A DNA stretch of 64,000 bases from Anaerolineae bacterium (GTDB lineage: Bacteria; Chloroflexota; Anaerolineae; Anaerolineales; UBA4823), in assembly GCA_003327455.1 (NCBI GenBank), contig QOQU01000001.1, forward strand, positions 258,337 through 322,336, given 5' to 3'. This document shows positions 6,005-50,884 of this stretch, piece by piece; within the stretch, counting starts at the first letter, position 1, and each line of letters opens with the position of its first letter. The notes below the pieces were generated by a model, which was not told the origin of the DNA, made no database searches, and worked only from the letters and a program-made list of their open reading frames with translations. The position numbers and the translations under genes were made by a program.

Positions 6005-6322
6005 CCCTCATCCCTAACCCCTCTCCCATGGGCGAGGGGAGTTTGATTCCCCTCCCCCTTAGGGGGAGGGCCAGGGTGAGGGATAAGAGCATAAGCGTCC
6101 AGGTGCAGTGGGCGAGGGGAGTTTGCCCTCACCCCCGGCCCCTCTCCCATGGGGAAAGGGGAGTTTGATTCCCTCCTCCTTAGGGGGAGGGCCAGGGTGA
6201 GGGATAAGAGCATAGGCGTCGAGCGGCGGCAGGCAAGGGGAGTTTGCCCTCACCCACAGCCCCTCTCCCATGGGGAGAGGGGAAACCCTCACCCCCATCC
6301 CCTCCCATGGGGAGAGGGGAGA
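6005..6322. repeat. Cluster of G/C-rich nested palindromes ('GEG' element family)
   Basis: Repeated CCCCTCTCCCatggGGAGAGGGG, CCCCTCCCCCttagGGGGAGGG and GGGTGAGGG/CCCTCACCC modules. Both strands translate to PLPxGEG-type pseudo-ORFs. Confidence 0.85.
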
Positions 6323-18029: not shown

Positions 18030-19424
18030 ATGCCGACGATTTGGTGGATTCGCCGTGACTTAAGACTGACCGACAACGGCGCGCTGCATGCTGCCCTTCA
18101 AGAGGGAGAAGTCATCCCATTATTTATTCTTGATCCACATTTGCTCGCCCATTCTGCCCCCAAACGGCTTAATTTCCTCTTTGGCGGCTTGCAGGCTCTG
18201 GATGAAAGCCTGCGCCAGCGCGGCGCGGCGCTGATCCTGCGCCGCGGTGAGCCCCTGACCGTCTTGCGCCAGATGCTGGCAGAGAGCGGCGCTGTGCACG
18301 TTTATGCCGAAGAAGACTACACGCCCTATGCGCGCCGCCGCGATGAAAAAATCCGGGCTGAAATTCCGCTGCATCTCATCGCCTGGCAAACCGTTCATCA
18401 TCCGGCAAGGGTGCGAAAGCCGGATGGAAAGCCTTACACCGTTTACACTCCCTACGCCAAAGCCTGGAAAGCAAACCTGGTTGATCTCAAACTCCTGCCA
18501 GCCCCTGAACGGATCATCCTGCCGCCCGGTCTCTCCAGTGAACCCTTGCCGCCTTTTCAACCCGAGGCACACTTTCCGCCCTCGGAACAGGAAGCGCAGT
18601 TGCGCCTTGAAGAGTTCACCCGTTCAGCCTCCGTTCCCTCTCTGCGCAGGGGATGGGGTGGCATCTTTACCTATGCCGAACAGCGCAACCGCATGGATCT
18701 GGACGGCACTTCCCAGCTTTCGCCCTATTTACGCTTTGGCATGCTTGGAATGCGGCAGGCGGTCTTTGCAGCCGTGCAAGCCATGCGCACTTCGCCACCC
18801 GGAATGAGCAAATCGGCTGAAACGTGGTTGAACGAATTGATCTGGCGCGAGTTCTACATTCAAATCCTGTATCATTTCCCTTACGTTCGGCGAGAGGCAT
18901 TCAACCGGGCTTTTGCGAACCTGCCCTGGCAGAACGATGAAGCCGCTTTTCAGAGTTGGAAAGAGGGATTGACCGGAATGCCGATCGTGGATGCCGCAAT
19001 GCGCCAGTTGCGCCAGATGGGCTGGATGCACAATCGCGCCCGCATGATTGTGGCTTCCTATCTGGTTAAGGACATGTTGATCGACTGGCGCTGGGGAGAA
19101 GCATGGTTTATGGAGAACCTGATCGATGGTGATCTGGCTGCCAACAACGGCGGCTGGCAATGGACAGCCGGCACCGGCACCGACGCTGCACCCTATTTTC
19201 GCATCTTCAATCCCGTTTTACAAAGTCGAAAATTTGATCCCTACGGAGCTTATATCCGCCGCTGGGTGCCCGAACTGCGCCACCTGGATGACGATGCCAT
19301 TCATGCACCGTGGCTCAAAGGGGTTCGGGTTGCCGGTTACCCCTCGCAGCCGGTTGTTTTACCCGATAAAGCCCGCACTTTAGCCGTCTATCGTTCAGGG
19401 CGAACTGGTCAACAGCGAAGCTGA
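18030..19424 (+). CDS. phr: Deoxyribodipyrimidine photolyase
   Basis: IWWIRRDLRLTDN N-terminus; FAD-binding C-terminal half (WREFY, GWMHNRARM, DGDLAANNGGWQW). Confidence 0.9.
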   Translation: MPTIWWIRRDLRLTDNGALHAALQEGEVIPLFILDPHLLAHSAPKRLNFLFGGLQALDESLRQRGAALILRRGEPLTVLRQMLAESGAVHVYAEEDYTPYARRRDEKIRAEIPLHLIAWQTVHHPARVRKPDGKPYTVYTPYAKAWKANLVDLKLLPAPERIILPPGLSSEPLPPFQPEAHFPPSEQEAQLRLEEFTRSASVPSLRRGWGGIFTYAEQRNRMDLDGTSQLSPYLRFGMLGMRQAVFAAVQAMRTSPPGMSKSAETWLNELIWREFYIQILYHFPYVRREAFNRAFANLPWQNDEAAFQSWKEGLTGMPIVDAAMRQLRQMGWMHNRARMIVASYLVKDMLIDWRWGEAWFMENLIDGDLAANNGGWQWTAGTGTDAAPYFRIFNPVLQSRKFDPYGAYIRRWVPELRHLDDDAIHAPWLKGVRVAGYPSQPVVLPDKARTLAVYRSGRTGQQRS

Positions 19425-20051
19425 AAACTCGCTCAAACTGCGCGCCAGCACATCCAAATCGGACTGGGCGGCGTAGGTATCCTTTTCCAAACCGCTCAGG
19501 GCTAAGTTGAGGCGGGTTTCCATTTCGACCAGAGCCGTACGCTGGCTGGGGCTGGCGCTGGTTTGCAACGCCTTGAAGATCGCTTGAGCGTTTTGCATTG
19601 CCTTCCTGGCAAGCTCCGCGTTGTTTTCATACAGGTAGATGCGCGCAGAGGCGATTTCCATTTGCAGGATAAGCACGTTATTCTGGAAATCGGCGCTCTT
19701 TAACTTTTCGAGAGATTCCTGATAGCGCTTTTCGATCTGGGCTTTTTCAGCCAGTTGCCCCTCTAAGGCTTCGATGCGACTCTGAGCGGCGCTCAATTCC
19801 GCTGCGCGAGCGTCTGCCTGGCGGCGCAGGGGCATGTAAAGCAGGAGCAAGGCAGCCACAAAGCCGATACCCAACAGGATTAAGACGCCCAGTGTCCAGC
19901 GCACCAGTTGACGCAGAAAGCGGCGCAGGCGGCTTTCTGCTTTGGGCGGTTGAGCGGGCAGCGCTGGCGGAATGGGTGTTTCAACGGACGGCTGTTCGGT
20001 TGGCTCTTCGAGCGAGCTTTCTAATTTTTCTTCGGCGTCATTTTCATTCAT
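19395..20051 (-). CDS. Membrane-anchored coiled-coil protein, unknown function (start moved to MNENDAE after AGGAAGGAG)
   Basis: One TM helix (WTLGVLILLGIGFVAALLLLY) followed by a heptad-rich region. The 3' end overlaps the phr 3' end by 30 nt (convergent). Confidence 0.55.
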   Translation of the reverse strand: MNENDAEEKLESSLEEPTEQPSVETPIPPALPAQPPKAESRLRRFLRQLVRWTLGVLILLGIGFVAALLLLYMPLRRQADARAAELSAAQSRIEALEGQLAEKAQIEKRYQESLEKLKSADFQNNVLILQMEIASARIYLYENNAELARKAMQNAQAIFKALQTSASPSQRTALVEMETRLNLALSGLEKDTYAAQSDLDVLARSLSEFSASLLTSSP

Positions 20052-20136
20052 TTGCCTTTCTCCTTCCTGCAGAAACAATTCAAGATTGATCGTAACAGCC
20101 TGTTCTGTGGCTTTTTTCGACTTTTTCGGCAGGCTT

Positions 20137-20976
20137 TCATTCGCGCTCTTTCGCTCGCGGGCGAGGCAATGGGTACGGCAGAGGGATATATTCAACTGTC
20201 GGACGCCCCATCCCGGCTTGCGGGTACATGTTCATCAATTGATAGACTTCTTTGGGGACATCCGTGGAGATGGGCAACCCCAAACCCCGCGCTTCTTCAA
20301 CGGTGATCGGGTAATCGTGCGTCCAGCGTCCGCTGGAGAGGACTTCGGCAAGCGTTTCTGCCTGTTCGGGGGTGGTATGACTCATCAGGATTTCGCGTAA
20401 GGTATCTTTGACCTGCCGCATCGCCTTGCGGGCAACATCGGCTAAGATCAACGTTTCATCGTTGATCTTTTCGAGTGGCTTTTGCTCTAAGACGGCAAGG
20501 ATAGAGGCGGCCGGTTGTTGACCGATTTGCGGATCGACCGGCCCAAGCACGGCATTCTCGTCCATCACGATTTCGTCGGCAGCCAGGGCGATCATGGTGC
20601 CGCCCGACATGGCATAGTGCGGCACAAAGACGGTCACTTTAGCGGGATGGCGACAAAGGGCTTTGGCGATCTGCTCGGCAGCCAGTACCAATCCGCCAGG
20701 CGTGTGCAGGATGATGTCAATGGGTACATTCGGATCGGTTAGCTTGATCGCCCGTAAAATCTCTTCCGAGTCATTGATGTCAATATAACGGGCAAGTGGA
20801 AAACCCAGGAAGGACAGGCGTTCCTGGCGGTGAATCAGGGCAATGGCGCGTGAGTTGCGTTTGACTTCCAACTGGCGTAACATGCGCGTCCGACTGGCTT
20901 CCAGCATGCGCTGACGGATCACCGGCTGTAAGGAGGAAATGACCAGGAAGAGAAAGAATAAAATTGTAAAGTCCAT
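20137..20976 (-). CDS. Membrane-anchored Clp-fold serine protease (SDH_sah / DUF114-like)
   Basis: N-terminal TM, then IALIHRQE..IDIILHTPGGLVLAAEQIA..YAMSGGTMIALAADEI pattern. Confidence 0.6.
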   Translation of the reverse strand: MDFTILFFLFLVISSLQPVIRQRMLEASRTRMLRQLEVKRNSRAIALIHRQERLSFLGFPLARYIDINDSEEILRAIKLTDPNVPIDIILHTPGGLVLAAEQIAKALCRHPAKVTVFVPHYAMSGGTMIALAADEIVMDENAVLGPVDPQIGQQPAASILAVLEQKPLEKINDETLILADVARKAMRQVKDTLREILMSHTTPEQAETLAEVLSSGRWTHDYPITVEEARGLGLPISTDVPKEVYQLMNMYPQAGMGRPTVEYIPLPYPLPRPRAKERE

Positions 20977-20996
20977 GTCTCACCTCGCGGAGGGGA

Positions 20997-21728
20997 TTAC
21001 CAGGGGAAGTATTCATCAGGATAGAAGCGTTCATACGGCAGCGGGCGACGCGGGGTAAAGAGCTTTACGGTGAGCAACCCAAAGACAAACCCACCGATGT
21101 GAGCAAACCAGGCTATGCCACCCATGCTCATCTGCGCCGGCGAGAGCAAAGCCGCTACGCCTGAGAAGAATTGCGATACAAACCATAAACCCAAAAAGAA
21201 GAAAGCGTTGATTTCGATAAAGTATGGGATGAAGAATAGGGGGATCAGGGTGATGACCCGGGCGTTGGGGAACAGTAAGAAGTAAGCCCCCATGACGGCC
21301 GCGATCGCGCCGCTGGCGCCGATTGCCGGCACACGGCTGGTTGGATCAACGAACGCCTGTGTGAAGGCGGCTGCCAACCCGCCGAGAATATAGAAAACCA
21401 GATAGCGGAAGGAGCCCATGCGGTCTTCGACGTTATCGCCAAAAATGAACAAAATCCACATGTTGCTCAAAAAATGTACCCAGCCGCCGTGCAGGAACAT
21501 GTGGGTAAACAGTGAAATCACCGCCAGTGGAGAAAATAAAAAGCGCCAGGGCTCAAAGAGCGGAAGGCGCGCCGGCACCATCCCAAAGATTGTAATCAGA
21601 CGCTCTAACAAACGATCGGGCATGCTGATCTCGAACAGAAAGATGGCGGTGTTCAAACCAATGATGGCATAGTTAACAATGGGGAAAGAACGAGAATGAA
21701 TGGTATCACGAATCGGAAGCATCTTCAA
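20997..21728 (-). CDS. Rhomboid-family intramembrane serine protease
   Basis: HMFLHGGWVHFLSNM, GASGAIAAVMGAY (catalytic Ser) and AHIGGFVFG (catalytic His) motifs. Confidence 0.9.
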   Translation of the reverse strand: MKMLPIRDTIHSRSFPIVNYAIIGLNTAIFLFEISMPDRLLERLITIFGMVPARLPLFEPWRFLFSPLAVISLFTHMFLHGGWVHFLSNMWILFIFGDNVEDRMGSFRYLVFYILGGLAAAFTQAFVDPTSRVPAIGASGAIAAVMGAYFLLFPNARVITLIPLFFIPYFIEINAFFFLGLWFVSQFFSGVAALLSPAQMSMGGIAWFAHIGGFVFGLLTVKLFTPRRPLPYERFYPDEYFPW

Positions 21729-21850
21729 CCTCGGTTCAGGAGCGAAAATCGCTCAAGCCTGCTCCTGAGAAGAGTCTGTTAAGCGTATTATACTTCACAC
21801 CCTTTTATGATATTGAATGAAAGCAAGCGCAACCTTCGAAAATGTGTCAA

Positions 21851-22579
21851 TCAACAGCCAGCTTTTTCAGCCACAATGATCACATTCGGCGAAAAGCGTT
21901 CGAGGGGTTTCTGATCAAAGCTGCCGAAGGTCGCTTGAATGCGAAAGCCAGCGTGCTCGAATTCGCCGAGCAGGAGGCTTACATCCTCCAGCGCATACTT
22001 CTGGCGATAGACGAAGCGCTGCACTTCGCCGTTGGGAAATAGTTGATCGTATCTCCACTCCACCTCGAGCCAGCCTGACTGGCGCTGCCAGGTGGTCAGG
22101 ACCTGGACCGGGTTATCGGACTGCGGATGGAGAAAAATCTCTTCCAGTTCGGCTTCCACCTTCGGTGGCAGAGTCTGGAGCAGGGCAGGGTTTGGGAAGC
22201 TCACCCCGAAGGCGCCTCCGATTTGCAAGCTCTGCCAGACATTGCTCAAAATTGCCCGGCGTTGTGGAGCGTCAAAGGTGGAATAGGTATTACAGGGCAA
22301 CAGCGCGAGCCGAAAGCCAGAAGCAAGCCCCAGGTGTCTCATATCGGCACAAAAAACATTTGCCGCCCCGCGCTGCTGCAGATAGCGCAGCATACTCAAA
22401 TCCAGATCGAAGCCAAATACCCGCAAGCCGCTATTCTGTAACGCATGATAGACTCGCCCGGTGCCGCAACCCATCTCCAGGACAGGTTCACCATAACGGC
22501 GAGCCAGTTCGAGGAAAAAGGGTATATCCTCGCTATAGCTGGCGTGATGGGCATGAAATAAGGGTGGAAAGCGATTCAC
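21851..22579 (-). CDS. Class I SAM-dependent methyltransferase
   Basis: Motif I VLEMGCGTGRV, motif II VFGFDLD. Confidence 0.8.
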   Translation of the reverse strand: MNRFPPLFHAHHASYSEDIPFFLELARRYGEPVLEMGCGTGRVYHALQNSGLRVFGFDLDLSMLRYLQQRGAANVFCADMRHLGLASGFRLALLPCNTYSTFDAPQRRAILSNVWQSLQIGGAFGVSFPNPALLQTLPPKVEAELEEIFLHPQSDNPVQVLTTWQRQSGWLEVEWRYDQLFPNGEVQRFVYRQKYALEDVSLLLGEFEHAGFRIQATFGSFDQKPLERFSPNVIIVAEKAGC

Positions 22580-22637: not shown

Positions 22638-22714
22638 CGGGGTGTGGCGCAGTACGGTAGCGCACCGCGTTTGGGACGCGGGGGTCGGCGGTTCAAGTCC
22701 GCCCGCCCCGACCT
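22638..22714 (+). tRNA. tRNA-Pro (anticodon TGG)
   Basis: Hand-folded cloverleaf: acceptor CGGGGTG/CGCCCCG, D stem GCGC/GCGC, anticodon stem CCGCG/CGCGG with loop TTTGGGA, T stem GGCGG/CCGCC. Confidence 0.9.
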
Positions 22715-23050
22715 TCGCAGTGGATTAACTAACTTGATAAGGTCGTTACTCGCTTATATTGTCACGCAAGCAACCCGAAAAAGCCGAAAGCAAGCGGAGC
22801 GGAACGCAGTGGAGCGGAGCGCAGCTTTCGGCTCAGGGTTGCTTGCGTAGGTTCGGGTGGGTGGGGGTTTGGGATGGTTTCAATCCGCGCGGGAGGCACT
22901 TCTTACCTGACACGCTCCTAACCTATCACCTGGAGAAGCGCGGTCGCGTTTTGCCAATTTTCCCCCCAGGAAAATTGAGCAAAACGGTTCATTGAATCTA
23001 TTCGACATTCTTCAACCGGATGAAAGCAATTCATCCTATACACTCTTTCT

Positions 23051-23222
23051 CTCCACAACCAGGCTAAGGCTTTCTCTCTCTGCCGGCGTTCCATCTCTGA
23101 CCTGGTTATAGCTTTCTCTCTATGCCGGCAATTCATCCACAACCTGGCCAAGTATTTCTTTCTACAACCTGGCTAAGGCTTTCTTTCTACAACCTGGCTC
23201 TGGCTTTCTTTCTCTGCCGGCG
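23051..23222. repeat. About 5 imperfect tandem repeats, core ACAACCTGGCTAAGGCTTTCT(C/T)TCT(CTGCCGGCG)
   Basis: Read directly. A related CTGCCGGCG(a/t)TCCATCTCTGACCTGG(c/t)TAT(a)GCTTC block recurs at 24894-24930 on the other side of the gene module. Confidence 0.75.
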
Positions 23223-23337
23223 GTATATCTCTCTCAGTTGTATAAGCGGTACGGGTTTATAAGGGGAAGGTTGGTTTGATGAGTAGATGAGATCGGGGTA
23301 TTGGTTGGCGGTTCGATGCGCAGACGTTCCACAGTTG

Positions 23338-23511
23338 TTAGCTGTCCGAATCCTGGTTGTTTTGGTTTTCTTCTGATTCTTTGTCTAAATCAATTCGAAA
23401 CAAAGGATAATGATTCTCTGGATAGGGATTAGCAAGGGAGATTAGGGCAAGGATGAATAGAAGGATGATGAAAGTTTTCAGGAAGCAGGTTAATTCAAGG
23501 ATATCTAGCAT
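23338..23511 (-). CDS. 57-aa small membrane protein (hand-called; MLDILELTCFLKTFIILLFILALISLANPY...)
   Basis: The ATG overlaps the upstream stop (AAATGCTAG); one TM helix. Last gene of the island module. Confidence 0.45.
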   Translation of the reverse strand: MLDILELTCFLKTFIILLFILALISLANPYPENHYPLFRIDLDKESEENQNNQDSDS

Positions 23512-23711
23512 TTGGGTTTCCTGATGGGGTTTTTCGATGGTTGAAGTTGGTTCAGGATTTCTTTGATTTGCTCCAGGCGTTCGGTGATTTTATTCAGGGC
23601 TTCAAGGTGCTTTTCGTCTTTGATTTCCTGGCGTTTCATGAGTTCGAGGGTGTACCAGATGAAGATGGCCAGGAGGGGGAATTGGATGAAGACAGGTAAA
23701 AGGTCTTGCAT
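23505..23711 (-). CDS. 68-aa N-terminal TM plus coiled-coil protein
   Basis: LPVFIQFPLLAIFIWYTL TM followed by a charged helix. Tightly packed in the module. Confidence 0.5.
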   Translation of the reverse strand: MQDLLPVFIQFPLLAIFIWYTLELMKRQEIKDEKHLEALNKITERLEQIKEILNQLQPSKNPIRKPKC

Positions 23712-23715
23712 GGGT

Positions 23716-24093
23716 TTATTCCTGGTCGGTAAGGGTTGATGCGTTTTGGGTTAGTTCATGGGTGAGTTCTTTCAGGATGTTGGTGAGGGGGTTTTGTTCT
23801 TCTCGCCGGCGAGTTTCGATGATGGATTGGGTGTTGTAGATGCGGGCGATCGAAAGGGTTATTTTCAGCATGGTGTCGATGTAGGTTAAAAGGGTTTCCT
23901 GGCTGATATTGGATGATTTCAGTTCTGCCATGATTCTTCTCCCGATTACTCTAAGGGCGTTTATTTCGGATTTTAGGGTTTCATCCAGGTTGTCAAGGTC
24001 GGCTCTTTCCAGTTGTCTAAATGCGCGGGCATAATAGCCATGTTTGAGGGCATTTAAGTTTCCTCTCGGCGCGCCTCTGTGTTTGTGATCCAT
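23716..24093 (-). CDS. 125-aa protein with an N-terminal GAPRGNLNALKHGYY motif, unknown function
   Basis: I associate the GAPxGNxNAxKHG motif with small phage/plasmid-borne proteins. This rests on memory only, with no homology search. Confidence 0.45.
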   Translation of the reverse strand: MDHKHRGAPRGNLNALKHGYYARAFRQLERADLDNLDETLKSEINALRVIGRRIMAELKSSNISQETLLTYIDTMLKITLSIARIYNTQSIIETRRREEQNPLTNILKELTHELTQNASTLTDQE

Positions 24094-24290
24094 AGGATTC
24101 TGGCTTTTTGATTGATATTGCGAAGGTGCAGGCGAACGGTTTGGGGTGATAGGTTTAGTTCTTGGGATATTTCTTTTTTCGATTTGCCGGCATTGCGCAG
24201 GTCGTTGATGATGCGTTCGGTATGGGTGAGGATGGGGATATTGTTACCGGTGAGATAATACCTGGTTTGATTGGTGATGATGATCCGCAT
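24054..24290 (-). CDS. 78-aa LuxR/sigma70-region-4-type HTH protein
   Basis: SKKEISQELNLSPQTVRLHLRNINQK helix-turn-helix. Confidence 0.55.
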   Translation of the reverse strand: MRIIITNQTRYYLTGNNIPILTHTERIINDLRNAGKSKKEISQELNLSPQTVRLHLRNINQKARILWITNTEARREET

Positions 24291-24474
24291 GGCTTGTTTT
24301 GGTTGATTGAAGTTTTTCCAGAATGGGGCGGGGGATAGGTTGATTGTTGAGCAGGCATTTGAGAAATAGACGGTATTCTTTATCGTTCAGGTTTTCGATG
24401 GCGGAGGTTGAGAAGGTGTAATGGGTTCCGTCCTGGTAGATGGTGCAGGTCATATGGGGGATGGTGGTTGTCAT
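24244..24474 (-). CDS. 76-aa hypothetical protein (start moved to MTTTIPH, 2 nt after the upstream stop)
   Basis: ORF packed as TAAGCATG after the Zn-ribbon gene; no recognisable motif. Confidence 0.4.
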   Translation of the reverse strand: MTTTIPHMTCTIYQDGTHYTFSTSAIENLNDKEYRLFLKCLLNNQPIPRPILEKLQSTKTSHADHHHQSNQVLSHR

Positions 24475-24476
24475 GC

Positions 24477-24734
24477 TTAGATTCCGAGTTTGTAGTTCAG
24501 TTCTTCTTGGAAGCAATCGTGGCAAAGGGGGAGTTCGACTTTGTAGGCGCCATCTTCACCGACGCTGGTTTCGAGGATGATAACGGCTTTGTTTCCGCAT
24601 TGGCAGTTTAGTTGTCTTCTTTTATAGGCGGGGTCGTTGCGGTGGCAGGGCAGGCATACGCCTAAGCCGTTGCCTTCTCCCAGGTAGGGAAGGTTGCAGA
24701 TTTTACAATTTGGTTTGATGCGGATGTTGGGCAT
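24477..24734 (-). CDS. 85-aa Cys-rich zinc-ribbon protein (island copy); paralog of 41206-41505
   Basis: CKIC..CLPC..CQC..CHDC; alignable with CRSC..CLAC..CAC..CEQC of the 41206 gene, including shared LPYL and VE(L/I)PLC blocks. Confidence 0.65.
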   Translation of the reverse strand: MPNIRIKPNCKICNLPYLGEGNGLGVCLPCHRNDPAYKRRQLNCQCGNKAVIILETSVGEDGAYKVELPLCHDCFQEELNYKLGI

Positions 24735-24747
24735 GTTTCCTCTCCAA

Positions 24748-24796
24748 ATAGAACGTTTGTTCTATTTATTTTAGAGAAGTTTTACTTAAATGTCAA
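24748..24796 (-). promoter_or_regulatory. Island module promoter (TTGACA 24791-24796, 17-nt spacer, TAAAAT 24768-24773) with a Cheo-type LexA box ATAGAACGTTTGTTCTAT (24748-24765) over the predicted start site
   Basis: Read directly; perfect GAAC-N4-GTTC core. Confidence 0.65.
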
Positions 24797-24947
24797 TCGG
24801 GGAATTGGCTTGCGAATGGGGCGAATTCATGCTAAGATAAGGTATCTTTCCCTCCCAAGCCTCTGATGGTTGTAAGCCATCAGGGGCTTATGTTTGCCGG
24901 CGATCCATCTCTGACCTGGCTATGGCTTCAGGTTATTAATTGAGGTG

Positions 24948-24956
24948 TGTTATAAT
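24948..24956 (+). promoter_or_regulatory. Extended -10 promoter candidate (TGTTATAAT) firing rightward into the 35-bp repeat array
   Basis: TGnTATAAT read directly; no good -35. Confidence 0.35.
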
Positions 24957-25000
24957 ACAGGTGGCTTCTCTCTATGCCCTTGATGGTTGCCATCCCATCG

Positions 25001-25187
25001 GGGGCATTTTCAATCTAACGACAATTTACCCACCGTGGGCATTTTCAATCTAACGACAATTTACCCAGCTGGGGCATTTTCAATCTAACGACAATTTACC
25101 CAGCTGGGGCATTTTCAATCTAACGACAATTTACCCACCGGTGGCATTTTCAATCTAACGACAATTTTCCCACAGGGAAAATTGTCG
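25001..25187. repeat. Five exact-period 35-bp tandem repeats (GGCATTTTCAATCTAACGACAATTTACCCA + 5 variable nt) ending in a 13-bp perfect hairpin CGACAATTTTCCC-aca-GGGAAAATTGTCG
   Basis: Unit starts at 25004, 25039, 25074, 25109 and 25144. Hairpin 25159-25187 followed by GTTCATTTTA. Confidence 0.9.
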
Positions 25188-25708
25188 GTTCATTTTAGAT
25201 AAAAACGCCCCAACCTTGCCCAAGCCGAACACGAAGTCGGATAAAGAGGTTATTTTAGCTTTTCTTATCTGAGTGGTTTTTTCAACCTTGCCCAAGCTAC
25301 GGCTGGGCAAGGCGTAAGTTTTGCCCCTAATCCCCCTATCCCGCCCCCCCATGTTAGACTTTCCTTGCTGGGGTGTGGGGGTTGGGTGGGGGGGCTTGGG
25401 GGGGCGGGAGGGGGAGGGGCAAAATTGGGGCGTGGTTCATTCTTCCAGGGGGTTTGTCAGGTGGGAAGGGGCTAGTTTTCCAGGTGAGGGCGGTCGTTCG
25501 GTTCGCATGGCTGAGCAAACGGACTATAACCCGGTCGTGTCAGGCGTTTTTGTTCAAGGGGCTATTGCATGACCTGATAACCTTTGCATTAAGTGCCTCT
25601 GTGTTTGCGCCAGCAGGTTTTGCCTGGGCATTTTCAGGCGTGGGCTGGGCGGCGCGGTTTCTTTTCCTTGTTTCTACGCCGGCGGTTGTTGAAAACGATT
25701 ATCATTAT

Positions 25709-25993
25709 CAGGAAGAGAAAGAATAAAATTGTAAAGTCCATGTCGCACGTCATGAAAACGAATTTCATTATCAATATCTTTATTCGGAGACAAGCTTCAT
25801 TTAACTTGTTTCTGCTCGAAGCCAAATACGCGCAAGCCGCTATTCTGTAACGCATGATAGACTCGCCCGGTGCCGCAACCCATCTCCGAACGTTTTTTCC
25901 GTCATTGTTCGCTTCATTTAACTTGTTTTCATCCCGGCTTTAGGACGCGGGGGTCGGCGGTTCAAGTCCGCCCGCAACTCACGCAAGCAACCC
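25709..25993. other. Collinear micro-copy of the upstream chromosome: four short blocks identical to 20944-20979, 22407-22478, 22674-22706 and 22762-22776
   Basis: Blocks at 25709-25744 (36/36), 25816-25887 (71/72), 25943-25975 (33/33) and 25979-25993 (15/15), same order and orientation. The linkers contain GCTTCATTTAACTTGTTT twice. Confidence 0.85.
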
Positions 25994-26100
25994 TGTTTTC
26001 GCTTGCTTTCCCTGGCCCTCTGGGGGTGGGTGGGTGGGGGGTGGTGGCGGTGCTTTGCTCGATGCCGGCGTTCTCGCATGTTCGCTTCTTTCTGCTGGCT

Positions 26101-26220
26101 TTGCTTGCTCAATGTCTGGCTACGATTCGGTCCGCGGTGAATGCTTGCTCAATGTCGATCTACGATTCGGTTCTCGGTGAATGCTTGCTCGGTGTCGATC
26201 TACGATTCGGTTCTCGGTGG
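26101..26220. repeat. 3 x 40-bp tandem repeat (TGCTTGCTCAATGTCGATCTACGATTCGGTTCTCGGTGAA)
   Basis: Copies start at 26101, 26141 and 26181. Confidence 0.85.
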
Positions 26221-26431
26221 TTGTTTAATTGGTGTGGCTTAACAAGAATAAAAGCGAATCCGGGTTTGGGTTAGTGGGGGAATGGCGGTTCAAGTCCGCC
26301 CGCCCCGACCTTCTGGGGGCATAAAACGATCGGTTGCGAAAGTGCGACTCCCATTTATTGTGTTTTTACTGCAAAAGCCTTAAATGGGCTGCTCCCCTTG
26401 CCCACCGAAACACCCAAACGCCTATGTCCTT

Positions 26432-26790
26432 ATCCCTCACCCTGACCCTCTCCCTGAGGGAGAGGGAACCTGACTCCCCTCGCCCATTGGGAGAGGGGTT
26501 GGAGGTGAGGGCATTCTCCAATCCCTCACCCTGGCCTTCTCCCTGAGGGATAGAGAACTTGACTCCCCTCGCCCATTGGGAGAGGGGTTGGAGGTGAGGG
26601 CATTTTCCAATCCCTCACCCTGGCCTTCTCCCTGAGGGAGAGAGAACTCAACTCCCCTCGCCCATTGGGAGAGGGGTTGGAGGTGAGGGCATTTTCCAAT
26701 CCCTCACCCTGGCCCTCTCCCTGAGGAATAGAGAACTTGACTCCCCTCGCCCATTGGGAGAGGGGTTGGAGGTGAGGGGGATAAGCCCTT
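26432..26790. repeat. 4 x 89-bp tandem array of the complete 'GEG' nested-palindrome unit
   Basis: Unit atCCCTCACCCtggCCCTCTCCCtgaGGGAGAGGGaac..CTCCCCTCGCCCattGGGAGAGGGGttGGAGGTGAGGGcatt. Copies start at 26432, 26521, 26610 and 26699. Confidence 0.9.
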
Positions 26791-26849: not shown

Positions 26850-28034
26850 CTAGATGACCAGCATTTTAACTGCCGCTGCAACATACAGGCGGGCAGCAAT
26901 CTCCATGGCTTGAATCTCAATAAACTCATTGGGTTGGTGCGCCAGAGCAGGATCGCCTGGCCCGAGTATCAAGGTAGGAACCTTCAAAGCTGGCACAAAG
27001 ACGGCTGCCTCGGTGGCAAAGGGCACTTTGACGATCGGAATGTCAAGCCCAGCGAATTCTCGGGCAGCCGCTAAAAAAGTTTGCACGGCTGGCGAGTCGG
27101 CGGCTGTCTCGGCGGGTGGCAGTTCATAGGTCAGGCGGATCGAGGCTTTCAAACCCGGAATTTCAGCTTCCAACCGGGCAAGAAACGCTTCTAACTGATG
27201 CAACAATTGACGGTGGTCTTGACCCGGCAAGGTGCGCATATCGACCATCACCGAGCACTGATCGGGTACCACGTTGACCTTCACCCCTCCTTGAATCGTG
27301 TTGACACTGCGCGTGAAATTTCCTAAAACGGGATGAGGTTGAAAGGGAATTTCCAGCTTTTCCAATTCACTCAACACTTTCACCATCATCATCACTGCAT
27401 TGATACCTAACTCAGGCGTTGAGCCGTGGGCAGTTTTGCCATAGGTGGTGATTTCAGGCCAGAAGACACCCCTTTCGGCCAACCCGAGTTGATTGGAAGT
27501 TGGCTCTGATATGATCACAGCTTGCCAGTTCCTGGCTTCGGGTAATGCAGCCAGGGAATGCGCCCCCATCATATTTACTTCCTCACCGGCGGTGGCAGTG
27601 AGAATCAGATCGCCGCGAAGGTTGAGATCCGCCTGGGCAATTGCTTTGGCTGCTGCCAGCATGGCAGCCACCCCTCCCTTCATATCCGCCGAGCCACGTC
27701 CCCAGACTTTGCCCTGCTCGATACTGCCTTCAAACGGAGGATATTCCCAATTGCCTGCCCCAACGGGCACCACGTCTACATGTCCATTGAAGACCACCGC
27801 TCCGCACTTGCCTGTCCCTTTCAGGCGAGCCAGCAGGGTAGCCCGATTCGCTTCGTGTTCGATCAGGTGACACTCATAACCAAAGGGTTTGAGATATTCA
27901 GCGATATATTCAACCGCCGAACGTTCGTTGCCCGGCGGATTTGTTGTGTCAAAACGCACCAGGTCGGAGGTCAAACGAGCGATCTCATCAGCTGAGATTT
28001 TGGAGAAAATCCCTTGAATGTCCATGCTTTGCAT
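26850..28034 (-). CDS. M20-family metallopeptidase (ArgE/DapE-like deacylase); start uncertain (28052 TTG, 28034 ATG or 28025 ATG)
   Basis: NGHVDVVP, GRGSADMKGG, ATAGEE metal-ligand motifs. Confidence 0.8.
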   Translation of the reverse strand: MQSMDIQGIFSKISADEIARLTSDLVRFDTTNPPGNERSAVEYIAEYLKPFGYECHLIEHEANRATLLARLKGTGKCGAVVFNGHVDVVPVGAGNWEYPPFEGSIEQGKVWGRGSADMKGGVAAMLAAAKAIAQADLNLRGDLILTATAGEEVNMMGAHSLAALPEARNWQAVIISEPTSNQLGLAERGVFWPEITTYGKTAHGSTPELGINAVMMMVKVLSELEKLEIPFQPHPVLGNFTRSVNTIQGGVKVNVVPDQCSVMVDMRTLPGQDHRQLLHQLEAFLARLEAEIPGLKASIRLTYELPPAETAADSPAVQTFLAAAREFAGLDIPIVKVPFATEAAVFVPALKVPTLILGPGDPALAHQPNEFIEIQAMEIAARLYVAAAVKMLVI

Positions 28035-28130
28035 TTCCTCTCGAAAAGACAAAAACCTTGTCCAACGTTAAAGTCCAAATCGGAAGGGGGAGGTGGGAAA
28101 AAACCACCTCCCCCACTGAAATCAATCGAT

Positions 28131-28517
28131 TTACGCCTTAATTTTGAAATAGCGCAACATTGCCCAACCGGCAATCATCGTGCCGAGGACGCAGATGATG
28201 ATATTCCATGCTGCAGGAACCTTGAGCGCCATGGGGATATAAGCCAACAGGACGACAATCGGAAGATATTTCCAGCCGCGCAAAATGGATTGTCCCCATA
28301 CGGCTCCAAACACCGCACGCAAGAGGAATTTATTGAAAGCATTTAACAGCCAGGCTGGAAAATATTGCTGGATGTAATTGATAAACAGCGCTCCAATTAA
28401 GATCGCCGGGATGTTGATCAGAACAGAAGTTACCACTCCAATTGCAGCCACCAGTTCCCCTTCGCGCGTGCCTTCTTTAGCCCCTGCTACCTCCTGGGCG
28501 ACAGCGGCACAAGGCAC
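28131..28517 (-). CDS. Membrane protein of unknown family. The frame stays open and protein-like upstream to 28616 without an in-frame start (possible frameshift just after the ATG at 28622)
   Basis: 3-4 TM helices. The upstream in-frame extension reads GFYISEPIAYFPTPGNAGWYLAGTDGNGSNLH. AAGGAG plus ATG lies at 28622 in a different frame. Confidence 0.5.
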   Translation of the reverse strand: MPCAAVAQEVAGAKEGTREGELVAAIGVVTSVLINIPAILIGALFINYIQQYFPAWLLNAFNKFLLRAVFGAVWGQSILRGWKYLPIVVLLAYIPMALKVPAAWNIIICVLGTMIAGWAMLRYFKIKA

Positions 28518-28818
28518 GTGCAGGTTCGAGCCATTGCCGTCGGTTCCAGCCAGATACCAGCCAGCGTTGCCAGGGGTGGGAAAATAAGCAATCGGCTCAC
28601 TGATGTAGAAACCATCAGAGTCTCCTTAGAATGGGATTTTCGATGTGATACACATCTATATTTCATTCTATAAGTCATCGAAAAAAAGTCAAGCCGAAAA
28701 TAAAACACTCCCATCCGACCATTCGTTTATAATAAAAAAGCCCCTCAAAAACTTTTTCCCCGTTCGTCAAAAGAGTTTAGAGAGGTCGTTGATTCCTGAT
28801 TCTCCAAAGGAGATATCC

Positions 28819-31155
28819 ATGAATGTGGTGTTCAAATCCTTTCTGCGGCCTCTCGGATCATTGCTCATCCTGGCAAGCCTACCCTTCAATTTTCTCTCTT
28901 CCCAAACTCTTAACCGGGACAACCTCATCTCTCCGTCACCTGCAAAGATAGATTTCGAACCTCCGGCAAAAGCAGAGAGGCAGCCTAATTTGTCCACACA
29001 TCTTAACCCATCCGCTGAAACCGATGTCCACTTTGTGGGTGTTCTCATCGACGTACAGGGGTCGTCTACACCAGGGGCAGTGACAACTAGAACCATTCGA
29101 GTCCAGGAGATCCTGGACGGACCAACTTTGAGCGGTACTGTTCTGGTAAAGTGGCAGGCTTTGCTCTATTGTTGGGAATCCTATATCGAAAGTGGCTTGA
29201 AGATCGGCGATGTCGTCGAAGTCAAAGGCAATTTAGGTTTTGCAGGCAATCCCGATGTCTGGCTGTGCGGACCAGGAGAGGAAACAGGCTCTTCTTACTT
29301 TATCCGCCGTGCCGTAAGACCGGAACCAATTAACGATCTTACGGCAATCACCGGTACCTATCCAGGAGAAATCATCCTCCGCTGGACAGCACCCTCGCTG
29401 GACGGTGGCACCACAAAGGTCGATTCATACACCCTCAGGTACTGGCCCTGGGAAATCAGTGAGCAAGAATGGAAATACGCCACCGACCTGGAGTCCGAAC
29501 CTATCCCTACCCTGCCGGGGACAGTCCAAACGATGACGGTTAATCTCAAACCGGGCAGCGAGTACTTTTTCGCCATCAAGGCGGTCGGTCCGACAGGGTT
29601 ATCTGCTCCAATCTCTAATTCTCCGTCCGCGCGCGCGGCTGGATATTTAGTCAGTGATATTAATTCTGATCTGACTTATACCCCGCAGGACATCCTCGGC
29701 TATCACGATGTGACCATTGTGGCAACCGCTGCTCGTACCGATGATTGGACGTTCAGATTGGGGGATATTGTGGAGGTGATTAAGTCCATCTCACAATTCA
29801 AAGACCTGAAGGAGGTCGCCTTTACCCTGGTTGATAAAGGCGGCTGGGCAGCCCTGGCTACTTATGCCAAAGCAGTCTGTGTCGGCCTGGCAGCGGACAT
29901 CGCTTTGAATTTGCGCTCTCAAGCTCTCTGGGGCTTACACCCGCTGGAAGACGGGGATTTCAGTCTGCTCTTATTAGACCCTAATGCGCCGCTTCTCCAA
30001 CCAGGGGTACCCTACCTCATCAAAGGAGTCTTACGGGAGAAAAAGCTCAAACCTCCGTTCGAACCTTTCTATTACCTGGAAGTTGACGATGCCAGCAAAA
30101 TCGTAGAACTTTTACCCTCCCCAACAGAACCTCACTTTACCATCCCAAACGGCTACACCTTTCGTTATTGGGTGAATATAAAACTCAATGAGGTCACACC
30201 CCTGGGAGACAACGTTTGCACGATCGGCATGGTAAGTGAACGATATGTGTTCAATCAATCGAAATATATTCGGCTTCGATTGATGGAAGGGAACGAAAGC
30301 GGCTTGATCGTTCGCGTTCAAGCCGAATCAGCCGCTCCTACCCTGGGATCTCTCGTGCTTGCCTGTGGTACCAAACGTTCTGAACACGATGTTTACGACG
30401 GCTGGCAATGGATCAGCAACTACCTGAACACCACAGAAGGCAATGGAAAGGTCTCGCTCTTGCGCGGTAAGACCTCCTCAATTGCCGGGCATGAGTATCT
30501 CAATACCACCAAACTGGTGGTAACGACAGGTAGCCCGGTGGATTTGCACGTCTGGGATGACCAGCAAAATCACATAGGGGCAATCTATGACTTACAGGGT
30601 CAACCAATCGGTTATCAAAATCAACTCCCGGATGCTGACTATATCCCAGGCACAGACCAAAACAGCGAAGCAGTCATCGTCGGCAATCCCACGTCATCGA
30701 TCTATTACCTGAACGTGCAGGGAAAGAATAGCGGGGTTTATACCGAAACGATTCGCATCTTTGACCCTTCAGGGGAACAGACGTATTTTTATAGCCTCCC
30801 AAACCAGCCTACTTTCAATGGTAAATATGACCAGATCGATTTTGCCGAACTTCCTGCCCCTCCGCGTGGTTTGACTTTTGATGTTACTGTGACAGGTACG
30901 GTCCTGGATTGGCTGGACAACTCCGAAAACGATCTGTTGGGATATAACATCTATCGCAGTCAACAGCGCGATGGCGCATACCAGAAGCTGAATGCCCTCC
31001 CCTGGAGTGTCAGTACCTTCATCGACAATGAGACATCCACAACCCAGGCTTATTATTACTATGTGACCGCTGTGGACCAGAGCTACAACGAAAGCGGACA
31101 TTTGACACCGCTAGCAAACCAATCTATACTTTACCTGCCAATTCTGATTCGCTAA
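28819..31155 (+). CDS. Secreted/surface protein with fibronectin type III-like domains (start moved to MNVVFKSF after AAGGAG)
   Basis: Signal peptide LGSLLILASLPF. FN3-like segments (LRWTAPSLDGGTTKVDSYTLRYW..YFFAIKAV; LDWLDNSENDLLGYNIYRS..YYYYVTAVDQSYNES). Confidence 0.6.
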   Translation: MNVVFKSFLRPLGSLLILASLPFNFLSSQTLNRDNLISPSPAKIDFEPPAKAERQPNLSTHLNPSAETDVHFVGVLIDVQGSSTPGAVTTRTIRVQEILDGPTLSGTVLVKWQALLYCWESYIESGLKIGDVVEVKGNLGFAGNPDVWLCGPGEETGSSYFIRRAVRPEPINDLTAITGTYPGEIILRWTAPSLDGGTTKVDSYTLRYWPWEISEQEWKYATDLESEPIPTLPGTVQTMTVNLKPGSEYFFAIKAVGPTGLSAPISNSPSARAAGYLVSDINSDLTYTPQDILGYHDVTIVATAARTDDWTFRLGDIVEVIKSISQFKDLKEVAFTLVDKGGWAALATYAKAVCVGLAADIALNLRSQALWGLHPLEDGDFSLLLLDPNAPLLQPGVPYLIKGVLREKKLKPPFEPFYYLEVDDASKIVELLPSPTEPHFTIPNGYTFRYWVNIKLNEVTPLGDNVCTIGMVSERYVFNQSKYIRLRLMEGNESGLIVRVQAESAAPTLGSLVLACGTKRSEHDVYDGWQWISNYLNTTEGNGKVSLLRGKTSSIAGHEYLNTTKLVVTTGSPVDLHVWDDQQNHIGAIYDLQGQPIGYQNQLPDADYIPGTDQNSEAVIVGNPTSSIYYLNVQGKNSGVYTETIRIFDPSGEQTYFYSLPNQPTFNGKYDQIDFAELPAPPRGLTFDVTVTGTVLDWLDNSENDLLGYNIYRSQQRDGAYQKLNALPWSVSTFIDNETSTTQAYYYYVTAVDQSYNESGHLTPLANQSILYLPILIR

Positions 31156-31163
31156 GGAGGCCC

Positions 31164-32390
31164 ATGGAAGCTACAATCCCTTCTTCTGTCAGGCGCTGGT
31201 TGGAGCATGTGCGGGTGCTGGCTGTGGACATCGGGCCGCGCGGGCCCACCCGCGAAGGAGAGCGAAAGGGAGCCCTGTACGCTAAGGAACAATTCGAAAA
31301 GATGGGCTTACAGCCCCGTTGGGAGACTTTTCGCAGCGCTCGCTCGATCTTCCACCCCCATCTTCTGGGCGCAATTTTGATGCTGGTGGCTTTTCTCCTT
31401 TATCCTCTCGGTGGACGCTGGACTGCGGCATTCGCCGCTTTGCTTTCTATTTTTGTCCTGATCAACGAAGTGCTGGAACTCAGCTTTCGGGAGAATTTCT
31501 TTCGCTGGGTGGTGCCCAAAGGAGAAAGCCAGAACGTTTATGCGCTCCTGAACCCTCAAGGGGAGCATCGTTTTGATCTGATCCTGGTTGGCCATGTGGA
31601 CAGCCAGCGTACACCGCTGATCTTCAAGAACCGCGCCTGGGTGAAAATCTATGATCGGTTCACGTTTATCGCTTTTGCCAGTTTTCTCTTGCAGGCAATT
31701 CTCTACAGCCTGGGAGCAATTTTTGGCTGGAACTGGGTTTGGCCGCCGACTGTCGTCAGCGCAATCTGCGCCGTGTTGCTGGCAGCCATGTGCATTCAGG
31801 CTGATCTGACTCCCTTCACGGCTGGCGCCAATGACAATGCCACCGCCGTGGGGATGGTACTTGCCCTGGCGGAGGAATTGCGCAATCAGCCCTTAGAGCA
31901 CGCCCGCGTCTGGGCGGTGATTACCGGCTGTGAAGAAGTGCAGCATTACGGCATGATCGATTTTTACCGCCGTCATCTCAACGAGTTTGAATCCCCCCAC
32001 GCAGTGGTCTTCGAGATGCTCGGCTGCGCCGGGCCGGCCTGGGTGACGCGGGAAGGTATTGTCGTGCCTTTTCACAGTGACTCCAGGCTGGTTGCCCTTG
32101 CCGAGCGATTGAGCGCCGAAAATCCGCACTGGCAGGCTTACCCGGCAAAGATCAGCGGCGGCAACTCGGAGCTTTCGGATGCGGTGCGCTTTGGAGTGCC
32201 GGCGATCACCTTCTTTGGTCTCACCCCGGATGGCGAAGCCCCTTACTGGCATCAGCGTGAGGATACCTATGACAAGATGAATCCAGACGTGATGGCAAGA
32301 ACCTGGCAAATGGTTACCGCTTTTATCCGCCATCTGGATCGGGAAGGCGTTTCGGGAGCATCTTCAGGCGAACAAAGGCTGCCCGCATAA
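31164..32390 (+). CDS. Membrane-embedded M28-family metallopeptidase
   Basis: GHVDSQ, GANDNATAVGMVLALAEEL, GCEEVQHYG motifs interrupted by about 4 TM helices. Confidence 0.65.
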   Translation: MEATIPSSVRRWLEHVRVLAVDIGPRGPTREGERKGALYAKEQFEKMGLQPRWETFRSARSIFHPHLLGAILMLVAFLLYPLGGRWTAAFAALLSIFVLINEVLELSFRENFFRWVVPKGESQNVYALLNPQGEHRFDLILVGHVDSQRTPLIFKNRAWVKIYDRFTFIAFASFLLQAILYSLGAIFGWNWVWPPTVVSAICAVLLAAMCIQADLTPFTAGANDNATAVGMVLALAEELRNQPLEHARVWAVITGCEEVQHYGMIDFYRRHLNEFESPHAVVFEMLGCAGPAWVTREGIVVPFHSDSRLVALAERLSAENPHWQAYPAKISGGNSELSDAVRFGVPAITFFGLTPDGEAPYWHQREDTYDKMNPDVMARTWQMVTAFIRHLDREGVSGASSGEQRLPA

Positions 32391-32418: not shown

Positions 32419-32805
32419 GTACCTGGGCCTGCGGACGCCCCGTCTGAGCAATCACTCTAGCACACAACCCCCCTGGGCCTGCGGACGTCTCGTCCGCTAG
32501 CAATGCATCCGAGACGGATGCGGCCCAGCGGATAGCGGATGAGGGGGATAATGGCATGTACCTGGGCCTGCGGACGCCCCGTCCGCTCTTAACGGTGCAT
32601 CCGAGATGCGGGCCCAGCGGATAGCGGATGAGGGGGATAATGGCACGTACTGGGCCTGCGGACGCCCCGTCCGCTCTTAACGATGCATCCGAGACGGATG
32701 CGGCCCAGCGGATAGCGGATGAGGGGGATAATGGCACGTACTGGGCTTGCGGACGTCCCGTCCGCTCTTAACGATGCATCCGAGACGGATGCGGACCCAG
32801 TGGGT
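32419..32805. repeat. About 4.5 tandem copies of a roughly 90-bp unit carrying two hairpins (GCGGACG-ccc-CGTCCGC and GCATCCG-aga-CGGATGC); REP/BIME-like
   Basis: Unit starts at 32419 (partial), about 32471, 32558, 32647 and 32738. It ends 10 nt from the RAYT fragment. Confidence 0.85.
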
Positions 32806-50649: not shown

Positions 50650-50850
50650 ACCCCCAGCCTCTCTCTCAGCGGGCGAGGGGAATTTGCTCCCTTCTCCCTT
50701 AGGGAGAAGGGCTGGGGATGAGGGATAAGGGCACAGGCGTCCAGGGGCCTGGGCGGGCGATAGAGGAAGCCCTCACTTTCAACCCCTCTCCCATGGGGAG
50801 AGGGGAGATGGATTCCCTCTCCCTTAGGGAGAGGGCCAGGGTGAGGGATA
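50650..50850. repeat. 'GEG' nested-palindrome elements (about 2 units)
   Basis: CCCCTCTCCCatggGGAGAGGGG, CCCTCTCCCttaGGGAGAGGG, GGGTGAGGG modules. Confidence 0.85.
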
Positions 50851-50884
50851 AAGCTCAAGACCTCTCGGATAATATTCGATTCCC

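Follow-up and report, generated by a model that had tools for sequence, protein, structure and literature searches.

What kind of mobile element keeps a pair of attachment sites at a tRNA gene and carries no integrase? The question is raised by a 3.6-kb insertion at the 3' end of a tRNA-Pro gene in a stretch of 64,000 nucleotides from an Anaerolineae (Chloroflexota) genome (contig QOQU01000001.1, positions 258,337 to 322,336; the whole stretch is called the window here, and coordinates without a contig name refer to it). The region is very probably an active integrative element that does without an integrase gene, and related DNA holds its site both empty and occupied as well as its two ends joined. 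What moves it is a separate matter. The element is best read, with a probability of roughly 0.6, as the satellite of a helper phage, with an adaptor of the small terminase subunit (TerS) type.

The insertion site, its empty form and the joined ends

The target of the element is the tRNA-Pro(TGG) gene at 22638-22713 on the + strand, located with ARAGORN and also the sole Rfam match above threshold (63 bits); nothing beyond this tRNA passed in the Rfam scan, and its sub-threshold matches to microRNAs and CRISPR repeats are hairpin noise. An initial annotation, made from the sequence alone, had pointed to a perfect 30-bp copy of the tRNA 3' end at the far side of the region, and the copy holds up: 22687-22716 and 26284-26313 are identical at 30 of 30 positions (E 2e-10), and the core that they share consists of the last 27 nt of the tRNA plus 3 nt. 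A core that runs from the T-arm to the 3' end of a tRNA is a classic target of tyrosine integrases. The repeats had been taken for the attL and attR of a discrete integrated element with an interior richer in A+T than its flanks. Both points are borne out, the former by the exact repeats and by precise empty sites, the latter by a GC content of 48.5% in the island (46.2% in its gene module, which is strongly strand-skewed) against 54.6% in the 10 kb on either side. The span first given, 22687-26313, is right as to the att repeats, but the exact insertion is 22717-26313 (3,597 bp). Its neighbours are housekeeping genes, for an SDH-type protease, a rhomboid protein and a methyltransferase on the left and for an M20 peptidase and an fn3 protein on the right.

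Empty tRNA-Pro sites, which the initial annotation had proposed to look for in close relatives, were found on four conspecific contigs. Seven metagenome contigs encode the left-flank methyltransferase with 100% protein identity; to judge from the sample identifiers, the source samples appear to be hot-spring metagenomes. On four contigs from as many Joint Genome Institute (JGI) samples (L056, which is 682 kb long, L057, L059 and L060), 22716 runs straight into 26314: TGGGGGCATAAAACG comes immediately after the tRNA, the core is present once, and identity to the window is 98.8-100% in the flanks. Another contig (L058) is occupied, its tRNA being followed by the left end of the island at 99.97% identity. 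It follows from the four empty contigs and the occupied one that the element is exactly 3,597 bp long and that its presence varies among near-identical genomes; the 3.6 kb are polymorphic in the relatives and not a fixed part of their chromosomes. The tRNA sequence, including the core from T-arm to 3' end, is the same in the occupied site and in the empty-site contigs (for example L056). Recombination inside the 30-bp core, at the tRNA-Pro 3' end, inserted the element and restored a complete tRNA gene.

The ends of the element are found joined in two lineages. In contig L011 (run DRR318519), 26033-26313 is followed by 22717-25031 through one 30-bp core, at 98.6-99.5% identity, which constitutes an attP junction; the assembly stops where it does because both contig ends fall in repeats. 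In a diverged lineage from a JGI sample (L063) the right-arm repeats lead through a 35-nt core into the left end, which the genes follow, and the contig contains no intact tRNA. Both junction cores are short (30 and 35 bp), so that, to judge from how assemblers work, spanning reads were likely needed to produce these contigs. The joined-end DNA is either a circle or a head-to-tail multimer, and in both cases an active element has produced it.

Does the element consist of one unit or of two? The initial annotation had listed a 33-bp partial copy of the tRNA end at 25943-25975 and had seen in it the trace of two tandem integrations. The copy itself is real: 22674-22706 and 25943-25975 are identical at 33 of 33 positions, and the match stretches to 42 nt at 93%. 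The two integrations are not supported, however, as the junction contig uses the outer cores, and as the internal copy stops 10 nt short of the end of the core and recurs with the same neighbours in two other lineages. It is the outer ends that are joined in the junction contig, so the full 3.6 kb acts as a single unit.

A different join, from 24928 to 23115 (23081-23165), is present in two contigs from different samples (L094 and L095) and runs through a 34-bp repeat that flanks the gene module on both sides; L094 also lacks 23099-23178. This join is due either to assembly collapse or to recombination between the flanking repeats with copy-number variation. It was considered as evidence of a sub-circle and set aside, given the possible collapse of the assembly across the 34-bp repeat.

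A conserved gene module, its terminase link and its non-coding sites

The coding content of the element amounts to a module of small minus-strand genes (Table 1). The ORF list (open reading frames) has six of them, p1 to p6, at the coordinates of the initial annotation (23338-24734), which had described an overlapping module of six genes. All six frames are in place, but five are conserved in relatives and the sixth is not: p6 is a doubtful gene because it has no counterpart there, an unrelated ORF occupying its position in L001 and none in L063. The LuxR-type helix-turn-helix (HTH) gene of that description is p3 (Pfam E 5.5e-10), and its GAPxGNxNAxKHG protein is p4, which carries the motif. 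p3 overlaps p4 by 40 nt in a different frame. A reading of the two as one frameshifted TerS is unnecessary, as they overlap in the window and in L063 but are separate, non-overlapping genes in L096.

Three lineages beyond the window carry the module, two of them beside a tRNA-Pro(CGG) core and with a shared non-coding architecture. Many independent contigs (L001-L010) have it convergent with tRNA-Pro(CGG), beside genes for inositol-1-phosphate synthase, YebC and RuvCA; L063 and L096 represent the third and fourth lineages with the module. A relative of p4 at 63% identity (P0004) is encoded within the same succession of zinc protein, small ORF, GerE HTH protein, p4-like protein and transmembrane/coiled-coil protein, and a GerE gene is also found at the p3 position in L007-L010, L063 and L096. 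Between L001 and L063 the ratio of nonsynonymous to synonymous substitution rates (dN/dS) is 0.09 for p1, 0.38 for p2, 0.15 for p4 and 0.07 for p5. The five conserved small genes evolve under constraint. The L001-type element is bordered on its right by an IS630-like transposase gene, whose 3' end it adjoins (L001 1-173), and the contigs end there.

What is p4? In profile searches it matches phrog_1889 (terminase small subunit) with E 3.7e-6, over residues 4-66 only, and Pfam Terminase_4 with E 0.065, below the cut-off; a profile and sequence search of the PDB returned no match. Its relatives number only 11 among 5.8 billion protein clusters. A scan of GTDB genomes with the p4 profile, in a set that does not include the source genome, found no full-module copy and only distant p4-like genes, which are concentrated in Chloroflexota. 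The link to packaging comes from phage contigs. In the IMG/VR contig L047 the order is transmembrane protein, p4-like protein, 94-aa ORF, large terminase subunit (TerL), portal and protease/capsid, with TerL recognised as phrog_5909 (E 2.7e-8) and the portal with E 6e-28; p4 aligns with the p4-like protein of L047 over 97 residues, and L013 and L014 have the same order with a GH25 lysozyme inserted. The position of a small terminase, ahead of TerL and portal, is thus that of p4 homologues in phage contigs and not of p4 itself. p4 belongs to a small Chloroflexota family whose members, where they lie in phage contigs, occupy the small-terminase position of the head module. The HTH domain lies on the separate overlapping gene p3 and not on p4.

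A second connection to phage head modules is made by p5, which has a homologue (37% over 46 aa, pairwise E 2e-12) in the 35.8-kb HK97-like viral contig IMGVR_UViG_2829439060_000001 (L078 404-4098). The homologue lies just upstream of an HNH gene, which is followed by a 152-aa ORF at the small-terminase position and then by TerL; the full order is tRNA-Pro core, LuxR-type HTH, multi-transmembrane protein, p5-like protein, HNH, 152-aa ORF, TerL, portal, protease and capsid. The tRNA-Pro core of this contig is partial and lies 850 bp from the p5-like region, and its TerL is closest (46%) to actinophage TerLs. A phage of the L078 type was considered as the helper of the element and remains a lead only: p5 is the one gene that they have in common, and p3 is unlike the HTH protein of L078. 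Taken together, the genes look like the packaging end of a phage pared down to one DNA-binding protein, one that resembles TerS and three others of small size.

Structure prediction of the small proteins, another check put forward at the outset, was carried out for p1 and p4 with AlphaFold2 and gave models without an informative fold match (predicted local distance difference test, pLDDT, 78 and 71). The p1 model is of acceptable quality, and Foldseek searches of PDB and BFVD with it returned nothing below E 0.05. The p4 monomer is modelled as a hairpin of two helices, a generic shape that would suit a TerS core, and the Foldseek matches of this model are likewise generic helical hairpins and coiled coils only. 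Family and profile searches with p2 returned no match.

Relatives of two of these proteins are also found outside such modules. Distant p1 relatives with two zinc sites are stand-alone chromosomal genes in other Chloroflexota (L064 8001-9088; L067 8001-9318) and repeatedly adjoin a 170-aa ORF and a Flp/Fap pilin gene. Stand-alone p4-like genes in Chloroflexota chromosomes (L017 4131-4623; L021 9723-10330) have the motif GAPxGNxNAxKHGYY, some of them with a Cys-rich N-terminal extension, and GAAC-N4-GTTC boxes lie 90-170 bp upstream of them. These boxes hint at a wider, possibly SOS-linked, role of the p4 family.

Across lineages the cis-elements are far more conserved than the proteins. The sequence GCAGTGGATT directly 3' of the core is conserved, and the long hairpin at the left end has a 12-pair stem in which five pairs are changed on both sides and still paired (RNAalifold, three lineages). 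The block of about 60 nt that follows in the left arm is almost identical in the window, L001 and L063, although at the protein level the two relatives share only 21-60% identity with the window. A G-quadruplex (G4) scan places a G-quadruplex-type motif within it at 22855-22873, and the block is presumed to be the binding site of a trans-acting protein, possibly that of a helper. The imperfect palindrome of C-runs and G-runs on the right is about 90% conserved over four lineages (94% in L063, 91% in L096), folds as DNA with -34.6 kcal/mol (z = -4.1), and is a candidate packaging site or origin.

The non-coding tandem repeats of the initial annotation are recovered by Tandem Repeats Finder (TRF) as arrays at 23052-23213, 24994-25177 and 26102-26219. 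The first is built of 42/25-bp units, with a further copy at 24895-24928 on the other side of the module and a copy number that differs between contigs (L094 lacks 23099-23178); a repeat family flanking the genes left and right belongs to the architecture that is conserved across lineages. The second comprises 5.3 copies of a 35-bp repeat. The iteron-like repeats and the palindrome are present in the element, but an initiator gene is not. As to the third array, its motif CGATTCGGTYCTCGGTG was seen by eye upstream of the core in L063 too, and the CGATTCGGTYCTCGGTG repeats are candidate arm-type recombinase sites.

The palindrome TAGAACAAACGTTCTA at 24749-24764 lies between the -10 element and the ribosome-binding site of p1, downstream of a promoter-like site with 11 of 12 matches in the promoter scan. 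Its pattern GAAC-N4-GTTC is the LexA box of Gram-positive-type bacteria (PMC3323433). It is found (AGAACAAACGTTCT) in every copy of the element, L001-L011 and L063, and the window has three matches to it against 0.84 expected by chance. No lexA or recA promoter lies in the window. As a LexA motif it applies to Dehalococcoides as well.

Table 1. Coordinates of the element, its genes and its non-coding features in the window
Feature	Position	Strand	Description
Mobile element	22717..26313	.	3,597 bp with one core copy; 39% coding, 61% non-coding; GC 48.5%
attL, 30-bp core GGCGGTTCAAGTCCGCCCGCCCCGACCTTC	22687..22716	+	spans tRNA T-arm to 3' end plus 3 nt
Left-end long hairpin	22762..22848	+	stem CACGCAAGCAACCC / GGGTTGCTTGCGT, GGAGC-repeat loop
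Near-invariant non-coding G-rich block	22849..22910	+	AGGTTCGGGTGGGTGGGGGTTTGGGATGGTTTCAATCC..GGCACTTCT.ACCT; also GGGTGGGTGGGGGTTTGGGATGGTTTCAATCC...GGCACTTCT
25/42-bp tandem and dispersed repeats	23045..23232	+	CTGCCGGCG...ACCTGGCT units, left of gene module
p6, 57 aa	23338..23511	-	predicted membrane protein; doubtful gene
p5, 68 aa	23505..23711	-	N-terminal transmembrane helix (FIWYxLExxKR motif) and coiled coil; dN/dS 0.07
p4, 125 aa	23716..24093	-	small-terminase-like; GAPRGNLNALKHGYY motif (GAPxGNxNAxKHG), then two-helix hairpin; dN/dS 0.15
p3, 78 aa	24054..24290	-	GerE/LuxR-type helix-turn-helix, Pfam PF00196 E 5.5e-10
p2, 76 aa	24244..24474	-	no recognisable family; positional counterparts of 69-74 aa in relatives; dN/dS 0.38
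p1, 85 aa	24477..24734	-	eight invariant cysteines (alignment), implying two zinc sites; dN/dS 0.09
Promoter-like site and operator	24749..24796	-	TTGACA, 17 nt, TAAAAT; 11/12 matches (promoter scan)
Five 35-bp tandem repeats, iteron-like	24994..25187	+	end in hairpin with 13-bp stem; TRF score 305
C-run/G-run imperfect palindrome	25316..25427	+	CCCCTAATCCCCCT..CCCCCCCATGTTAGA..GGGGGGGCGGGAGGGGGAGGGG
Two captured host-gene fragments	25709..25887	+	in A+T-rich filler with short direct repeats and conserved motif GCTTCATTTAACTTGTT
Internal pseudo-attL	25943..26051	+	partial tRNA-Pro 25943-25975, left-hairpin-arm copy 25976-25995, G-run 26022-26051
Three 40-bp tandem repeats	26102..26235	+	contain CGATTCGGTYCTCGGTG; 50-180 bp from core; TRF 40 bp x 3 at 26102-26219
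attR, second 30-bp core copy	26284..26313	+	exact repeat; in L011 runs straight into 22717

A probable satellite with borrowed machinery, and the alternatives

Where would the functions that the element lacks come from? Profile searches of 16 island ORFs (the six of the module and the ten longest others) found no family match to a recombinase, excisionase, replicase, primase, helicase, Rep, relaxase, capsid, portal or tail protein, in line with the initial annotation, which had recognised no recombinase, replicase, relaxase or capsid ORF. No integrase is encoded by the flanking genes at 18030-22579 and 26850-32390, and the site holds no tandem partner element, oriT, relaxase or conjugation genes. 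PADLOC detected no defence genes in the element, p3 being matched solely through its generic helix-turn-helix domain.

Nor does the element look like a rare deletion derivative of a larger parent. A scan of JGI metagenomes with a 24-mer from the left arm retrieved three small contigs, all of them small elements, and a scan of IMG/VR with a left-arm 32-mer gave zero matches; on these two results, no large parent with this left arm was found. The 27-nt core of the window likewise had zero matches in IMG/VR, p4 had none in a tblastn search of the GenBank phage set, and an exact-protein look-up of p4 and of the M20 peptidase (TTG start) returned nothing. Partial tRNA-Pro 3' halves with this core, in an A variant, are carried by 26 stretches of IMG/VR viral contigs, which makes the tRNA-Pro site a common phage target.

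The initial annotation had offered a choice between a strongly decayed prophage or integrative and conjugative element (ICE) and a satellite-type element. The latter is favoured by the empty sites, the attP contigs in two lineages, the relatives at tRNA-Pro(CGG) and the purifying selection. As a helper-phage satellite, the element would owe its integration and excision to a tyrosine integrase acting in trans, provided by a phage, co-resident or infecting, that uses the same tRNA-Pro site. Its conserved non-coding blocks (the G-rich one in the left arm, the CGATTCGG repeats in the right arm and the C/G palindrome) would serve as sites for the integrase, the replication initiator and the terminase of the helper, and their extreme conservation relative to the proteins of the element suggests that helper proteins constrain them. 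p3, through its HTH, and the TerS-like p4 would mark the DNA of the element for the large terminase of the helper. Multimers would then be packaged by headful, since 3.6 kb is far below the capacity of a capsid, and concatemer packaging is documented for small satellites, namely phage-inducible chromosomal minimalist islands (PICMI, PMC10803314) and virion-encapsidated integrative mobile elements (VEIMEs, PMC9618062). The module may be switched on from a promoter controlled by the AGAAC-N4-GTTCT palindrome, either by LexA in the SOS response or by p3. Both the dependence on a helper and the packaging of the element are what we infer.

How does such an element compare with known systems? Those Staphylococcus aureus pathogenicity islands (SaPIs) and phage-inducible chromosomal islands (PICIs) that encode a TerS are elements with specific att sites and an induction tied to the helper or the SOS response, and their TerS redirects the large terminase of the helper to the DNA of the satellite. 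PICIs are 10-15 kb long and encode an integrase, a master repressor, a primase or replication initiator with an origin and, often, genes for capsid-size redirection. Integrase, master repressor, primase/initiator and capsid-size redirection genes are all absent from the element. RS1 and TLC-phi of Vibrio cholerae, which are integrative mobile elements exploiting Xer (IMEX), are satellites of about 3-5 kb that encode no recombinase of their own but use a borrowed one, and whose particles come from a helper phage. They use the host XerCD at dif and are derivatives of single-stranded filamentous phages with rolling-circle Rep genes, whereas the element targets the 3' end of a tRNA and has content of the tailed-phage (TerS) type. 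Among the satellites of tailed phages we know of none that is integrase-less.

Phage satellites in general are what the element most resembles in the way it works. With them it shares att-flanked site-specific integration with an attP junction, the absence of virion genes and a TerS-like packaging gene, but it fails two of their defining features, an integrase/excision factor and replication functions of their own (PMC10803314). PICMI and the marine VEIMEs are small, site-specific, helper-dependent elements without capsid genes whose concatemers fill a normal capsid (PMC10803314, PMC9618062). Small-terminase homologues nearest to those of local phages occur in some VEIMEs, and p4 may be likened to them. 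VEIMEs also carry tyrosine or serine recombinases, however, and here integrase, excisionase and primase are all lacking; PICMI target the fis locus, in contrast to the tRNA target of the 3.6-kb, 61% non-coding element.

Several points weigh against the satellite reading. Known satellites all encode an integrase and excision functions by the definition of PMC10803314, and the element lacks both. The 64-kb window, IMG/VR and the GenBank phages yielded neither a helper phage nor an integrase, and close relatives of the element genes are absent from the latter two collections. The TerS assignment is made from a short N-terminal motif and the synteny of distant homologues, with a fold search that is uninformative, and many p4-like genes are orphans in Chloroflexota chromosomes. 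The palindrome follows the -10 element in the window but precedes the -35 element in L001 and L063; with a placement at the promoter that varies from lineage to lineage, it could equally be an operator for p3. Finally, the junction contigs fit a free circle and a chromosomal tandem array alike and cannot distinguish between them, and the stretch 25031-26033 comes solely from the assembly of the window itself.

Could the element instead be a non-phage hitch-hiker? Cis-mobilizable elements (CIMEs) keep attL and attR, have no integration or transfer genes, use the recombinase of another element and are often found in tandem, through accretion (PMC5704250). The element has attL and attR without such genes, which is how CIMEs are defined (PMC5704250), the internal partial att copy resembles an accretion scar, and no helper phage was found; it might then be a remnant moved by the integrase of a neighbouring ICE, integrative and mobilizable element (IME) or prophage, with a TerS-like gene that plays no part in packaging. 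This is unlikely, if not to be neglected. Decay would not explain why five genes are retained under purifying selection in each of three lineages, together with the same cis-blocks. There is no tandem partner at the site and no oriT or relaxase signal, and the content is phage-derived, with p4 homologues at the TerS position and a p5 homologue beside the terminase genes of L078. CIMEs are, moreover, decayed ICEs or IMEs moved by conjugation, whereas the element is of phage type, has genes under selection and occurs as a stand-alone unit with an attP junction.

It is far less probable that the element is self-sufficient, with p1/p2, or a host recombinase guided by the pseudo-attL region, integrating and excising it without a classical integrase. 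In favour of this, neither p1 nor p2 can be assigned to a family or fold, only p5 is more constrained than p1, and a partial tRNA target lies beside a copy of the element's own left end in three of three lineages examined. No recombinase as small as 76-85 aa is known, however, the distant relatives of p1 are stand-alone chromosomal genes without att context, and a core at the 3' end of a tRNA, in a site that many phages use, is classic for tyrosine integrases. The bolder proposal that the pseudo-attL region, beside freshly captured host pieces and with p1 or p2, represents a new way to specify and catalyse site-specific integration is equally a long shot. An inert, decayed prophage end that persists beside the tRNA, which would account for a small, mostly non-coding region with phage-like gene remnants and no integrase, is scarcely credible and already largely refuted by precise presence and absence among 99%-identical genomes, by attP junction contigs in two lineages, by the identical architecture beside the tRNA-Pro(CGG) core in relatives and by dN/dS values well below 1.

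If the element is a satellite, the minimal set required to hijack a tailed phage falls to an att site, cis-sites and a TerS-type adaptor, while integrase, replication and capsid would come from elsewhere. The element would also be the first mobile-element family of its kind described for the Anaerolineae (Chloroflexota), a phylum in which hardly any phage-host biology has been characterised. The chances are about even that it represents the first family of tailed-phage satellites without integrase, excisionase and replication genes, made up of 3-3.6 kb of cis-sites and a packaging adaptor. Such elements may be systematically overlooked, because searches anchored on integrases would probably miss them.

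Captured host fragments and other features of the window

The pseudo-attL region has the same internal order in the window, L001 and L063: the motif GCTTCATT(T/C)AACTTGTT, a partial tRNA, the hairpin arm of the lineage itself and a G-run. Pieces of host genes are found beside it. In the window, 25709-25744 is identical to 20944-20979 (36 bp, at the start of the SDH-type protease gene), and 25816-25887 matches 22407-22478 in the methyltransferase gene at 71 of 72 positions, with one private change. L001 has an inverted 32-bp piece of the Ino1 gene of its host (419-450), and L063 has pieces similar to YebC and Ino1 (217-300, 343-382), which are flanking genes of the L001-type tRNA-Pro(CGG) site. 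In all three lineages examined, the captured pieces are 32-84 bp long and come from genes beside each lineage's own type of tRNA-Pro site. Replication may have switched templates at obstacles such as the G-run and the hairpin and so inserted templated copies; aberrant excision with a subsequent deletion and recombination at secondary sites are other possible causes. The captured fragments beside a pseudo-att are a puzzle separate from that of the satellite, and they may record recombination or replication of such elements in situ.

To the right of the island, an 89-bp hairpin-forming repeat that resembles repetitive extragenic palindromic (REP) sequences (core GGGAGAGGGG..GGGGGTGAGGG) forms 3.9 tandem copies at 26432-26778. 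It is also present at about 2000-2082 and at 6005-6306, 50702-50851 and 60107-60581, and accounts for most of the G-quadruplex-type motifs of the window. These repeats were ruled out as part of the island; the empty-site contigs have them too, as do other parts of the window, and they are therefore host repeats. Another tandem array, of about 91 bp, lies at 32472-32803, in or next to an M28-peptidase region, and gives staggered self-matches in the alignment of L056 with the window. In the same pair of contigs, photolyase is encoded by one ORF of 464 aa in the window (18030-19424) and by two genes (146 and 287 aa) in L056 (13162-14550), which suggests a frameshift or a sequencing error in one of the two.

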